Shown: positions 10,031 through 37,250 of the stretch, one piece after another | Layout of the letters: each line of letters opens with the position of its first letter | How positions within the stretch are numbered: the stretch's first letter is position 1 | NCBI GenBank assembly: GCA_964016885.1 | Contig: OZ024755.1 | Span: 14,570,001 to 14,634,000, forward strand | Length of the DNA stretch: 64,000 bases | Source: Eledone cirrhosa | Taxonomy: Eukaryota | Reading direction: 5' to 3' | Position numbers and translations under genes: made by a program | The notes under the pieces: generated by a model | The model's database searches: none | What the model was told of the DNA's origin: nothing | Seen by the model: the letters and a program-made list of their open reading frames with translations, nothing else

Positions 10031-10472
10031 CATACTTCCTCAGTCAAAAGACTGCTGGAATTTCAAATTTGGCGGTCATTCGATGCGTGAAGGGACAACT
10101 TAACAGACATGAAAATTAACTGCGGTAAGGAATTTTTTTCTTATATCAAAGTTTAATGGGCTTCCACTGACGATTTATAAGTGCCCACCTAAATATATTC
10201 TTACATGAAAATATGTTAGGCTTCTACATAAACTGGAAACATTCTCCCAACTTGTAGAAAACTTATAATGAAACAATTGTTTGGAAAGAGAGATTTATTT
10301 TAACTTTAATTATATCTCATATAAAATAATACAACTGTCTTTCCACAAAATACATATAGTTAGCAACCCAAACACTTAATTTAGGTTTATACTAACGTAT
10401 AACCTAATGTTTGTTGAGTGAGATGGTTACCAGTCGGAGTTTAGCTTAGAGCTATCTCTGTCATTGTATTAA
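10031..10472 (+). mobile_element. HHR-bearing interspersed repeat, copy A (PLE terminal repeat or retrozyme-like)
   Basis: Reverse-complement homologous to 10993-11450 and 36793-37250. Carries a branched HHR at 10162-10286; its 3' end runs into (TA)n. Confidence 0.75.
10162..10286 (+). ncRNA. Hammerhead ribozyme with branched stem II (copy A)
   Basis: TTCCA-CTGACGA-T-TTATAAGT...ACTTATAA-T-GAAA-CAATT-GTT/TGGAA. Confidence 0.7.
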
Positions 10473-10992
10473 ATATATGTATATATATATATATATATAT
10501 ATATATATATATGAACATAAATATATATATATATATATATATATGAACATAAATATATATATATATATATATATATGAACATAAATATATATATATATAT
10601 ATATATATGAACATAAATATATATATATATATATATATATGAACATAAATATATATATATATATATATATATGAACATAAATATATATATATATATATAA
10701 ATATGAACATAAATATATATATATATATAAATATGAACATAAATATATATATATATATAAATATGAACATAAATATATATATATATATATATATAAATAT
10801 GAACATAAATATATATATATATATATATATATATATATATGAACATATATATATATATATATATGAACATAAATATATATATATATATATATATGAACAT
10901 AAATATATATATATATATATATATGAACATAAATATATATATGTATATATATATATATATATATGAACATAAATATATATATGTATATATAT

Positions 10993-11450
10993 TTAATACA
11001 TTAACAGAGAAAGCTTTAAGCAATACTCCGACCGGCTTCCGTTTCACTCAACAAACATTAGGATATACCTTAGTATAATCCCAATTATACGTTTGGGTGC
11101 TAACTATACGTATTATGCGGATAGCCAGTTATATTATTTTATATGAGACATAATTAAAATACATCTCTCTTTCGAAACGATCATTTCATTATAAGTTTTC
11201 TACAAATTGGGAAAATAATGTCCAGGTTATGTAGAGGCCTACACACAGTCCGTAGGAATATATGTAGGCGGGCACTTATAAATCATCAGTGGATGCCCGA
11301 CAAATATCGATATAAAAAAAAAACAAAAAAAAAACCTTGCCGATATTAATGTTCAGCGATGGTACACCTCCGTGCTAGAATAACCGCCAAATTTGAAATT
11401 CCAGCAGTCTCACAATCAGAAATCTCACAATGCCATCAAGCGGAAAGGGG
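10993..11450 (-). mobile_element. HHR-bearing interspersed repeat, copy B
   Basis: Shares blocks with copies A and C: CACTCAACAAACATTAGG, TATTATTTTATATGAGA, TCATCAGTGGATGCCC, TCCAGCAGT. Confidence 0.75.
11172..11293 (-). ncRNA. Hammerhead ribozyme with branched stem II (copy B)
   Basis: Minus strand: TCCA-CTGATGA-T-TTATAAGT...ACTTATAA-T-GAAA-TGATC-GTT/TCGA. Internal hairpin GCCTACATATA/TGTGTGTAGGC. Confidence 0.65.
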
Positions 11451-13929
11451 ATATATATATATATATATATGAACATAAATATATATATGTATATATATAT
11501 ATATGTATGAACATAAATATATATATGTATATATATTTATATATGAACATAAATATATATATATATGTATGAACATAAATATATATATGTATATATATAT
11601 GTATGAACATAAATATATATATATATATATGTATATATATATGTATGAACATAAATATATATATGTATATATATATATATATATATATATATATGAACAT
11701 AAATATATATATGTATATATATATATATATATGTATGAACATAAATACATATATGTATATATATATATATATGTATGAACATAAATATATATATGTATAT
11801 ATATATATATATGTATGAACATAAATATATATATGTATATATATATATATATATGTATGAACATAAATATATATATATATATATATATATATATATATGT
11901 ATGAAGATAAATATATATATATATATATATATATATATGTATGAAGATAAATATATATATATATATATATATATATGTATGAAGATAAATATATATATAT
12001 ATATATATATATATATATATATATGTATGAAGATAAATATATATATATATATATATATATATATATATATATATATATGTATGAACATAAATATATATAT
12101 GTATATAAATATATATATATGTATGAAGATAAATATATATATATATATATATATATGTATGAAGATAAATATATATATGTATATATATATATATATGAAG
12201 ATAAATATATATATGTATATATATATATATGAAGATAAATATATATATGTATATATATATATATATATGAAGATAAATATATATATGTATATATATATAT
12301 ATATATGAAGATAAATATATATATGTATATATATATATATATATGAACATAAATATATATATGTATATATATATATATATATGAAGATAAATATATATAT
12401 GTATATATATATATATATATGAACATAAATATATATATGTATGTGAAGGTATGTATATTTCCTCTGATAATTTGTAATATTTTTACATAGATCTATATGA
12501 TATACATACCAACACACATATACATCCTAGAAACGACCGTAAAATGACGAATTTTTTAATATTAGGAACTTTTATTTCATTGTATGTATTATTTTATGTG
12601 TATATATATATATATATATATATATATATATATATATATATATATATATATATATATTAACATAAATATAAATATATATATATATATGTATATATATATA
12701 TATATATATATATATTAACATAAATATAAATATATATATATATGTATATATATATATATATATATATATATATATATATATATATATATTAACATAAATA
12801 TAAATATATATATATATATGTATATATATATATATATATATATATATATATATTAACATAAATATAAATATATATATATATATGTATATATATATATATA
12901 TATATATATGAACATAAATATATATATATATATATTAACATAAATATATATATATATTTATATATATATATATATGAACATAAATATATATATATATATA
13001 TATATTAACATAAATATATATATACATATATATATATTAATATATATATATATATACATATATATATATTAATATATATATATATATATATATATTAATA
13101 TATATATATATATATATATATGTATACATGTATATATATATGTGTGTGTACGTATATATATATATATATATATATACATATATATATATTTGTATATATA
13201 TATATATTTGTATATATATATATATTTGTATATATATATATATTTGTATATATATATTTGTATATATATATATATTTGTATATATATATATATTTGTATA
13301 TAAATATTTATATTTGTATATATATATTTATATTTGTATATATATATATATTTATATTTGTATATATATATTTATATATATTTGTATATAAATATTTATA
13401 TTTGTATATAAATATTTATATTTGTATATAAATATTTATATTTGTATATATATATTTATATTTGTATATATATATTTATATTTGTATATATATATTTATA
13501 TTTGTATATATATATTAAAAACATAACATGAAATGTACTGACCATATATGTGTTGTGTATATCGTTACTCCATACTCCGTCTAGTCCTGCTAGATGATCA
13601 CCCGGGCAACTGTTATGCCGTATCTGCACATCCCATCTCGCTTATCACATCACATGCCATCCCATAGCATCCTATCACCATCCCATACCATTCCATAACC
13701 TCCCATACCATCCTATCACCATCCCATACCTTACCATACTGTCCTATACTATCACATCACATATCATTTCCAGCATGCCTCACTACACTACACTATACCA
13801 CAGACTGGTTTAACAACCTCATAACTTATGACAGTTAAATATCCTCTCACTACACTGGATAATAATGAGGACGGGGTGCGGTTTTGCAGCGGATTTCTCT
13901 ATTGCGCTTAACCCAGGACCATGTCGCAG

Positions 13930-35603: not shown

Positions 35604-35924
35604 AACCAATAAACGTAATGAAGGAGTAACCAATCGCCCTTGTTATCTTATTTCACTATAATACACTCTGTATAGCTCTACACCTCGACACTGAAATGAA
35701 CCTAAATATCGAGTGCTCACCCGGGTGAACCTACAGTAATTCCAAGTTACACTCCCTGGAGATATATATATATATATATATATATATAGAGAGAGAGAGA
35801 GAGAGAGAGAGAGAGAGAGAGATGTAAATATAGATATATGCACATACACACACATGCACACATATATATACATGTAAACAGTATATGTATTGTTCACTAG
35901 ATATCAGTTCTGTGGATCTTCACG

Positions 35925-36320
35925 TGACTATGTAACTATGTAGATTAATGCGGTAGACACAAGTAGAGTCACAAACCAGGTCGATCATATATTGTCTCGC
36001 GGGAGAAGATGCGCTGTGTTAATCAGGTCACGATATTTCCCCGCTCAAGTCTATCATTGAGATATCCGGTTCATCCTGTGCCGAAAGTTGATCTTCATCA
36101 TAGATGATCCATCTCCAATCGTGTTGATTAATCACCAACGAATTCCATGCGTCGTTTTTGTTCTTTTTCAAATTTCCGTTAAGTGCGGCTTTGAACAACT
36201 TCATTCGTTTATCCTCGTGAGTGCTTTACTTCCTTAAGCTGGGAGTTTAACAACTGCTTGAGCAACCGTTGGTCTGACAATCACATGATAGCTCCACGCC
36301 ATGAAATCTGATATAGTGGA
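35925..36320 (-). pseudogene. Old RTE (BovB-like) LINE C-terminal remnant
   Basis: Minus-strand fragments RLLKQLLNSQLKEVKHSRG, FKAALNGNLKK, WRWII and CDSTCVYRINLHSY resemble the BovB motifs RLPKQLLYSELxxGKRxxG and CxSRIGLxSH. Confidence 0.55.
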
Positions 36321-36792
36321 ACTGTGGGTTAAATACAGTAAATATAAGCTTTGTGAAGTACACTGATATTCTTCTGTCTGAGAACCAAACCTAGTGTTTG
36401 GTATCTTGTTTATCGACCTCGATAAAGAGTGATAGGCAAAGCTGCTCCCAGCATCATTTTAACTCAACGCGTAGTAAAAGACTTAGTAAGGAACGTGTAA
36501 AAAATAGTGTTGATGTATGTCTGATAATCGAAACGTAGATATATTGATAAACTGTAGCATAATAAGAGAGGTTAGAAGGGAAACTTAACTAACTTGCTGG
36601 AACCCGCTGATAGATGTAGCTACAGTACATCTATCTCTACAGCGTGAAAGGAATTTAGTAGTAGTTGCTTTAATGGGGAATATTTTAAAAATTACATAAT
36701 CCGTTGCATTGAATAGGATTAACTTCAAAGAAAATGTGTTCCCGCGTACATACAGGCATACATACACACATACATATATATATATATACAAT

Positions 36793-37250
36793 TCAATACA
36801 TTAACAGAGAAAGCCTTAAACGATACTCCGACCAACTCCATCTCACTCAACAAACATTAGGATATACTTAAGTATTATCCCAATTTAGTGTTGGGGTGCT
36901 AACTAATCAGTATTTCATGGATAATTGGTTGTATTATTTTATATGAGACATTATTAAATAAATATCTCATTTCTTCCAGACAGCCGTTTCGTTATAAGAT
37001 TTCTACAATTTTGGATAAATAATTTCCAGGTCATGTAGAAACTTTTATATAATCCATAGTTTTATACACAAGCGGGCTCTTATAAACTCATCAGTGGATG
37101 CCCAGTCAATAAGATATAAGAATTATCTCGACATTAACAGAATGGTGATGGTCTCTCTCAGCGCCAAGAAGAGACTGGTAGATTAGAATCCAGCAGTTCT
37201 CTCAAAGAAAAAATACACGCTGTCCCCAAAAGGGTAAAGGGAGGTCATCT
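36793..37250 (-). mobile_element. HHR-bearing interspersed repeat, copy C
   Basis: Collinear with 10993-11450: AATACATTAACAGAGAAAGC...CACTCAACAAACATTAGGATATAC...TCATCAGTGGATGCCC. Confidence 0.8.
36975..37098 (-). ncRNA. Hammerhead ribozyme with branched stem II (copy C, fully canonical core, GUC site)
   Basis: Minus strand: TCCA-CTGATGA-G(T)TTATAAGA...TCTTATAAC-GAAA-CGGCT-GTC/TGGA. Confidence 0.8.

Follow-up and report, generated by a model that had tools for sequence, protein, structure and literature searches.

A type I hammerhead motif with a predicted branched stem II insert and pseudoknot in an abundant repeat family of Eledone cirrhosa

Minimal hammerheads of Penelope-like elements (PLEs) cut poorly in vitro, and the reason for their retention is an open question. 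A 64,000-nucleotide stretch of the Eledone cirrhosa genome (assembly GCA_964016885.1, contig OZ024755.1, positions 14,570,001 to 14,634,000 of the forward strand; hereafter the window, whose own numbering is used throughout) raises this question anew, as it holds three copies of a repeat in which a hammerhead motif encloses about 78 nt inside stem II. What could such an insert do? In this study we show, at the level of sequence, that the copies carry a type I hammerhead motif, and we conclude that the hammerhead motif, with an insert predicted to branch, is real and under selection. The reading that we favour, with moderate confidence, is that these are dispersed copies of an abundant non-coding repeat bearing a type I hammerhead with a predicted two-hairpin stem II of 95-97 nt, probably a non-autonomous retroelement moved by the reverse transcriptase/endonuclease of a PLE.

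The copies of the repeat are:
10031..10472, + strand: copy A, 442 bp, with a 5' part shorter than that of C, inside a TA-derived minisatellite array.
10993..11450, - strand: copy B, 458 bp, tail-to-tail with A across ~520 bp of one minisatellite.
36793..37315, - strand: copy C, ~520 bp, the longest copy, from a second subfamily, with (TA)n on both sides.

A sequence-only reading of the window had located three diverged copies here, and they are indeed present, with pairwise alignment identities of 77% (A/B), 74% (A/C) and 78% (B/C). Its location of copy C was right, but the end given, 37250, falls short: the copy runs on to ~37315, with read depth to ~37300, and fills a 528-bp island between (TA)n runs. 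Copy B is read as an independent insertion because it is only 77% identical to A. A minisatellite with a TATGAACATAAA-type unit extends over 9870-12430 in one orientation on all sides of A and B, and both copies were therefore inserted into, or engulfed by, one array. A fourth copy was not found in the 64-kb window with BLASTN and nhmmer, and short BLAST matches to the 3' end at 31980, 8723 and 29547 were rejected as copies after inspection. A covariance model built from the three copies gives them scores of 152-162 bits, and the next site in the window scores 21 bits. The copies are non-coding, the open reading frame (ORF) fragments that overlap them being without a Pfam match, and they are multicopy by contig counts. 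Sequences of the family were placed on the copies from public runs at an identity of at least 80%; for one sample, two runs contributed 781 and 878 contigs to copy C, to which a second organism added 7 contigs and a separate study 1868 raw reads. The repeat family is thus large and abundant.

The hammerhead motifs within the copies are:
10163..10285, + strand: hammerhead A, with stem I 10163-10166/10282-10285, core CUGACGA 10167-10173, U.U at the stem II base, stem II 10175-10182/10261-10268, GAAA from 10270 and the stem III strand ACAAUUGU 10273-10280; predicted cut after 10281 (GUU), placed by hammerhead numbering.
11172..11293, - strand: hammerhead B, with the layout of A; predicted cut after 11176 (GUU).
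36975..37098, - strand: hammerhead C, with G10.1-C11.1 followed by a bulged U; predicted cut after 36979 (GUC).

Three helices surround the core: stem I of 4 bp, stem II of 8 bp, and stem III of 2 bp plus a palindrome. The CUGANGA...GAAA core, the A15.1-U16.1 pair, an NUH triplet and the type I order are found in 3/3 copies. As had been described, stem I reads TCCA/TGGA (TCGA in B), the core CTGAYGA...GAAA, and the cut site GTT in A and B and GTC in C; the stem II strands, TTATAAGT/ACTTATAA in A and B and TTATAAGA/TCTTATAA in C, are also present and differ by one compensatory pair. The UCGA (11174) and U15.2 (11183) of hammerhead B are private to that copy. G10.1-C11.1 is present in C, and U10.1.U11.1 together with GUU is the norm of the A/B subfamily. 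According to passages of PMC3088659, U10.1.U11.1 occurs in natural hammerheads, and the base of helix II is likewise U.U in the axolotl HHR_Amex2 (PMC7229834). The predicted cut lies 183-191 nt from the 3' end of the element, and cleavage would likely depend on dimers. A descriptor requiring an 8-bp stem II gives 3 matches in the window, against 1 in 200 shuffled windows.

The distance from CUGANGA to GAAA is 96 (A), 95 (B) and 97 nt (C), of which ~78 nt lie inside stem II. No Rfam hammerhead match at E <=10 was obtained on A, B or C, probably because of this long insert; over the whole window, the best 150 of 595 Rfam matches are all microsatellite-driven microRNA matches below the gathering score. 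The published descriptor of minimal hammerheads allows a stem II of 3-7 bp and a loop 2 of 3-10 nt (PMC4209133 supplement). It cannot match the copies, since loop 2 has a maximum of 10 nt there and ~78 nt here, and the second arm is ~4x the length permitted. The motif thus escapes both Rfam and short-stem-II descriptors, the latter as anticipated from the sequence.

In all three copies, the A15.1-U16.1 strand can pair with itself at 8/8 positions, with a self-duplex energy of -6.4 to -9.7 kcal/mol. Together with the type I core in 3/3 copies, this supports the proposal of a Penelope-type type I hammerhead with palindromic stem III. By contrast, the claim of three independent loop III palindromes (AATT, GATC, GGCT) was abandoned. 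AATT, GGCT and the U15.2 of copy B fit decay by CpG deamination, AATT and GGCT were accordingly rejected as selected palindromes, and the three therefore amount to one selected change (GATC vs GGCC). The stem III states of the family are ACGAUCGU (A/B type) and ACGGCCGU (C type), one compensatory double change apart. On copy C, loop III is GGCC in 6714/6826 of the depth of contig set X1 and in 208/226 reads of set X6, while for the GATC of copy B no loop III variant reaches 10% in reads.

The inserts carried by stem II are:
10188..10259, + strand: branched insert A, with hairpin P2a 10188-10220 and hairpin P2b/P2c 10222-10259.
11198..11268, - strand: branched insert B, with P2a 11268-11238 and P2b/P2c 11236-11198.
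37001..37072, - strand: branched insert C, with P2a 37072-37042 (other sequence, predicted same helix) and P2b/P2c 37040-37001.

Folded in isolation, the insert is predicted to form stem II topped by a three-way junction from which two hairpins branch (z = -4.6 for A, -6.0 for B and -2.9 for C); 0, 0 and 4 of 200 dinucleotide shuffles, respectively, are as stable. The proposal that ~80 nt within stem II fold as two hairpins in all copies is therefore upheld by prediction. The inner TGG/CCA also proposed is out of register in C, although the majority allele of the family restores the helix. In the three-copy alignment, 114/119 cells are paired (95.8%) and 5/40 pairs are changed on both sides, values that 6/500 shuffles reach; slid registers pair 30-53%. 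Four of the five unpaired cells (11174, 11236, 37012 and 37045) are restored by an allele at no less than 99% of X1 contig depth, and the fifth by an allele at 10% of X1 depth and in 212/422 X6 reads. Mismatches in the window copies are thus mostly post-insertion decay. With the allele at 37045, C has a G-C pair in place of the A-U of A and B, which brings the double changes in hairpin P2a to four. The description of the domain as covarying holds mainly for P2a (3/11 pairs, the fourth coming from the family allele) and for one stem II pair, but not for the P2b hairpin, which is invariant.

Polymorphism within the family provided further evidence. On copy B, polymorphic sites occupy 8/80 paired and 10/31 unpaired positions (Fisher p = 0.008), and 2/58 paired positions when P2a is left aside (p = 0.0003); the core has 1/13, P2b 0/14, the GCCC strand that follows stem II 0/4, and loop III none. 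Five near-fixed differences were taken to be private to B and are not in this count, which may in turn include some false sites owing to indels near loops. Taken together, alignment pairing, restoring alleles and the polymorphism bias support the view, already taken from the sequence, that structure was kept while sequence drifted, although the three-copy covariation, coming from related sequences, is by itself no more than suggestive. These data also bear on the idea that the insert is a tolerated passenger, partly microsatellite-derived and selected only to fold away, the ribozyme acting as a minimal PLE hammerhead. P2a would suit a passenger, being AT/GT-alternating and strongly different between subfamilies, and insert length is labile, being 20 and 60 nt in the stem II of other hammerhead-like motifs of the window. 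We nevertheless judge this idea unlikely: the subfamilies, which are 22-26% apart, have the same P2b (7 bp) and GCCC sequences, and the polymorphism of both on copy B is nil, which is more than would be needed if any hairpin sufficed.

The insert also exposes a strand that could pair outside it, as follows:
10157..10187, + strand: predicted pseudoknot A, UGGGC 10157-10161 (stem I leader) with GCCCA 10183-10187 (junction strand after stem II).
11269..11299, - strand: predicted pseudoknot B, CGGGC 11299-11295 with GCCCG 11273-11269.
37073..37104, - strand: predicted pseudoknot C, UGGGC 37104-37100 with GCCCG 37077-37073.

The GGGC that immediately precedes stem I and the GCCC that immediately follows stem II are the same in 3/3 copies. 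The helix that they can form, which the sequence-only reading did not mention, has 4 invariant pairs and a fifth reading U-A in A, C-G in B and U.G in C; in a dimer, both of its sides belong to the enzyme strand. Once stems I and II are in place, it is predicted to become a pseudoknot between the leader of stem I and the junction of stem II. It is the most specific candidate for the purpose of the junction. A stem I/II pseudoknot of this kind is predicted for ~40% of hammerheads in PMC3088659, with a strong gain in rate where tested.

On the 3' side of the cut site, and at the 5' end of copy C, further structure is predicted:
10327..10471, + strand: predicted 3'-terminal multibranch domain A, whose closing 7-bp helix ends at the last bases of the element.
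10994..11136, - strand: predicted 3'-terminal domain B.
36795..36936, - strand: predicted 3'-terminal domain C.
37263..37310, - strand: strong 5'-terminal hairpin, in copy C only (5' segment z = -3.6).

The element is also structured beyond the cut site (z = -2.5 to -3.1 for this segment), and its last ~145 nt are predicted by RNAalifold on the three-copy alignment to form the multibranch domain, which the sequence-only reading did not mention either. Of 19 listed family variants on the 3' side of the cut in copy C, 11 affect paired positions, and 9/11 keep or restore the pair; the variant listing for copy C covers 40 of 131 rows. This 3'-terminal domain is likely to be the recognition signal for the mobilising PLE enzyme. 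An 11-mer by the 3' terminus of copy C (36798-36808) recurs exactly at 37131-37141, ~35 nt 5' of the hammerhead, a repetition that A and B do not retain and that may be due to chance. At the other end, two X1 contigs hold the 5' segment of copy C (37255-37303) and then a different sequence on the 3' side, and the 5' hairpin may be common to another family.

The depth of X1 contigs on copy C, which gives no copy number, climbs from 1,900-5,900 in the 5' part to 9,600-21,800 across the hammerhead, and close to the 3' end, at 36820-36867, it is 80,000-188,000. Such a rise would be expected if priming occurred at a fixed 3' end and copies were often truncated 5'. All three 3' ends abut (TA)n, as had been noted; the 5' ends do so too, (TA)n bordering 6/6 copy ends against a background of 17.6% of the window in runs of (TA)>=5, and A and B share one array. 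In addition, 8 X1 contigs have a variant 3' end that terminates in TA. Insertion targeted to (TA)n is plausible, though weakly tested. Passages of PMC8557442 report that endonuclease-bearing (EN+) PLEs favour (TA)n, and a recent preprint derives animal retrozymes from PLE ends (bioRxiv 10.64898/2026.07.22.740005). The link of the family to PLEs is drawn from the architecture of the hammerhead, its position 183-191 nt from the 3' end, the (TA)n borders and the literature.

A related explanation is that the copies are the 5'-truncated 3' ends (pseudo-long terminal repeats, pLTRs) of an autonomous PLE with its own reverse transcriptase (RT) and endonuclease, the ribozyme being read in the same way. 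We regard this as possible but rather doubtful. Most PLE hammerheads are single motifs from truncated PLEs, as stated in passages of PMC4209133, and the rows of File S2 of PMC8557442 place Hydra-clade hammerheads near the 3' end; counted by eye, 14/26 of these rows carry U.U at the stem II base and 10/26 carry U at the cut site. The depth climbing towards the 3' end would suit truncation as well. Conversely, the depth on copy C stops at ~37300, at a (TA)n border and a terminal hairpin, with no ORF (a weak test, the border being repeat-masked), and diagnostic motifs of the conserved parts of the repeat were not found in the published Naiad/Chlamys/Hydra consensus set (PMC8557442). Matches to two 8-9-nt motifs and to a core-flanking 10-mer in the PLE consensus set were rejected, as their contexts are unrelated, and the Hydra-1_Obim hammerhead was rejected as a relative, being short and unrelated. 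An RT and GIY-YIG ORF by a pLTR, which would mark an autonomous PLE, was not found among the 149 of 172 ORF fragments of the window that were screened. A non-autonomous element is favoured over a truncated PLE because copy C appears to begin at its terminal hairpin by (TA)n.

The non-autonomous, PLE-moved element that we favour would work as follows. The element would be transcribed, and two RNA copies would pair through the 8-nt palindrome, either ACGAUCGU or ACGGCCGU, which would supply the stem III absent from the monomer. The invariant GGGC upstream of the 4-bp stem I is predicted to pair with the GCCC exposed at the three-way junction atop stem II, and this pseudoknot would replace the loop I/loop II contact absent from minimal PLE hammerheads. 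The two hairpins would serve as a scaffold presenting the GCCC strand. The RNA would then be cut after GUU or GUC, 183-191 nt from the 3' end of the element. A PLE enzyme acting in trans would recognise the folded 3' domain, nick (TA)n and copy from the fixed 3' end, and copying would often stop early.

A number of observations weigh against this scheme. With regard to the selected structure, the covariation counts are small, coming from three full sequences, and related sequences can beat shuffles without structure, as the tool itself warns. The arms of P2a are alternating and AT/GT-rich, which makes some self-pairing cheap (46-53% paired at +/-2 slides); the invariant P2b says nothing about pairing; and in X6 reads the top pair of stem II is broken in 118/648 and P2c in 123/411. 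With regard to the pseudoknot, the G of the fifth pair in B is a minority form (A in 99.9% of the depth at 11269), and its partner lies at the edge of coverage, where the changes also fit CpG decay. A nested GGGC/GCCC hairpin that destroys stems I and II has a probability of 0.70 in A, 0.97 in B and 0 in C; the active monomer fold costs +5.5 to +14.7 kcal/mol, pseudoknot energy not included; and a 4-bp stem I beside an 8-9-bp stem II makes the geometry of the pseudoknot uncertain. With regard to mobilisation, the GIY-YIG family was not matched among the 149 of 172 ORF fragments of the window that were screened, and the same fragments gave no RT match adjoining any copy; the sole RT match (43930-46101) adjoins an APE-type (apurinic/apyrimidinic) endonuclease fragment and lies ~7 kb from copy C. 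Tandem copies were not found in the window, nor a tandem joint in the contigs, in which both ends of the stretch are masked as repeats. The 3' depth bias could equally reflect a 3' end common to more subfamilies. Finally, covariation in the 3' domain is weak: 5/53 pairs are changed on both sides, which 20-35/500 shuffles reach, and the structure comes from the same alignment.

The nested hairpin suggests a different role for GGGC/GCCC, namely an off-switch that would block self-cleavage of monomers or circles, leaving the branched hairpins to another job such as binding a PLE protein. RNAalifold and partition folding favour the nested helix in A and B, and in passages of PMC4209133 dimer-only cleavage is thought to protect monomers. 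In copy C, on the other hand, GGGC/GCCC is still present, the neighbouring pair that lends the hairpin stability has been lost, and the hairpin has a probability of 0; nested folding, in addition, cannot score pseudoknots. We therefore think an off-switch improbable and retain the pseudoknot as the preferred role of the helix. Moreover, a costly monomer fold together with a favourable palindrome duplex fits the dimer-dependent cleavage of PLE hammerheads set out in parts of PMC4209133 and of the review PMC6765202.

The same costly fold could instead belong to a catalytically dead relic, in which structure is kept for reasons other than cleavage. The A/B subfamily has U.U together with GUU, each of them sub-optimal, and 1/9 Xenopus retrozyme dimers cleaved in vitro in the experiments described in passages of bioRxiv 10.64898/2026.07.22.740005. 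Against such a relic, the core is invariant in 3/3 copies and nearly without variation in the family, and the stem III palindrome was kept through a double change (GATC vs GGCC). We hold a dead relic to be very unlikely. At the other extreme, the branched stem II might be a natural activating module, whose junction would present GCCC and pre-fold the enzyme strand, allowing fast trans-dimer cutting without helper factors, within a class that is common and missed; we advance this only tentatively.

Relatives of the repeat were not found in the viral or metagenome contigs searched by pattern. A 24-nt pattern of the 3' end returned 0 stretches in metagenome contigs, and a pattern of the family's 5' part returned 9 viral stretches, 0/9 of them with the family's stem III/stem I strand. 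By eye, 4/9 are ordinary short type II hammerheads and were set aside; these compact motifs (contigs L003, L007, L008 and L009) share a GGGC.TCCACTGATGA string and are unrelated to the repeat family. General long-stem-II patterns matched 114 and 112 viral stretches and 120 metagenome stretches (the latter in 2 of 64 parts), and none of these matches (n=347) has a stem I of at least 3 bp together with a stem II of at least 5 bp; one with 6 bp in stem I and 4 bp in stem II was taken as chance.

Elsewhere in the window, an unrelated (TA)n-flanked element (35494-35762, + strand) carries a type I hammerhead motif with its core at 35522, an unbranched stem II of 60 nt (insert z = -2.7) and the sequence GAAACGGGCGTC, and has no Rfam hammerhead match. 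Type I hammerhead-like motifs with a 20-25-nt stem II and a short or palindromic stem III are located at 62628 (-), 5382 (-) and 47460 (+); the first passes a descriptor (5 real matches vs a mean of 0.03 in 300 shuffles), and the other two were recognised by eye. A near-perfect fold-back at 47308-47371, ~140 bp upstream of the 47460 motif, has CTGAGGA on both strands (47322 +, 47357 -) and resembles a head-to-head junction whose turning point lies within a hammerhead stem II. The window also contains a long interspersed nuclear element (LINE)-type RT ORF of 724 aa (43930-46596, - strand; RVT_1 E = 2e-32), with a PHD finger after the RT domain and an APE-type endonuclease fragment upstream, interrupted by (TA)n. 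A frame at 42541-43206 (- strand), without Pfam match, resembles the C-terminal part of another LINE ORF2. A dispersed repeat of 100-250 bp resembling a short interspersed nuclear element (SINE), with 70-87% identity, occurs at 16076-16281, 18008-18427, 25848-26152, 32551-32797, 39263-39497, 58236-58438 and 63094-63188.

What does this family add to the question of why weakly cutting hammerheads are retained? The GGGC/GCCC helix is a concrete, mutable candidate for their missing tertiary contact, and the branched insert is a natural scaffold that can be deleted. There is also a blind spot of size: a conserved hammerhead motif in an abundant repeat escapes Rfam and the published descriptor, and counts of hammerheads in animal genomes are therefore likely to be low. 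If the insert were indeed an activating module, long-armed hammerheads would be a common class in animal retroelements, missed by Rfam and published descriptors. The surprise is limited by the fact that the association of hammerheads with PLE-type repeats is already well known.

As regards novelty, a two-hairpin stem II in an animal retroelement hammerhead was not found in print in the literature searched, to which the long-stem variants of Lunse et al. may be an exception, and the supplements of the preprint and of PMC4209133 could list long-armed motifs. Passages of PMC8557442 and PMC6155905 describe no branched stem II domain.

The closest known system is the minimal PLE hammerhead (Cervera and de la Pena 2014, PMC4209133), for which passages of that paper give 4-5 bp in helix I, 7-8 bp in helix II, a helix III that is palindromic, and weak cutting, as dimers. 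Our repeat shares with it the type I order, the 4-bp helix I, the 8-bp helix II, the palindrome formed by 15.2-16.2 and loop 3, the U-rich 5' and AU-rich 3' flanks, and an occurrence mostly as single dispersed motifs. It differs in loop 2, of 3-10 nt there and of ~78 nt and branched here; in the bulge, which in those passages stands before G10.1 and in copy C after it, A and B having a U.U mismatch; and in the candidate pseudoknot, no tertiary contact being reported in the same passages. Animal non-LTR retrozymes, as portrayed in parts of PMC7229834 and bioRxiv 10.64898/2026.07.22.740005, are likewise non-coding, a few hundred bp long, equipped with a type I hammerhead and proposed to depend on PLEs. 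They are defined there by tandem units, canonical loop-loop contacts and circular RNA, whereas only single copies were seen here.

Hydra-clade PLE hammerheads (Craig et al. 2021, PMC8557442) resemble our repeat in their (TA)n targets, plausible for it too, their position near the 3' end and their frequent U.U and cut-site U, and differ from our repeat by a loop 2 of <=10 nt and a longer stem III. PLE-X1_sMoe, from the same study, is a partial precedent: its stem II has 9 bp, its loop 2 has 35 nt, and the C-rich beginning of that loop looks, by eye, complementary to its 5' leader. It is a plant element with at most one inner hairpin, marked as deviating from the canonical structure. No sequence match was found between our repeat family and these Hydra-clade or PLE-X1_sMoe elements. 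Finally, the hammerheads stabilised by pseudoknots (Perreault et al. 2011, PMC3088659) resemble it in the predicted contact, with 4-6 Watson-Crick pairs that link the region of stem I to that of stem II. According to passages of that work they were tested mainly in compact type II ribozymes with a very short stem II, unlike the pseudoknot predicted here, whose partner strand would lie within the three-way junction that tops an 8-bp stem. Thus the repeat family has the core, helices and palindrome of a minimal PLE hammerhead and departs from it in the size of loop 2: the association of a hammerhead with a PLE-type repeat is known, and the oversized stem II, predicted to branch, is a structural variant that looks new.

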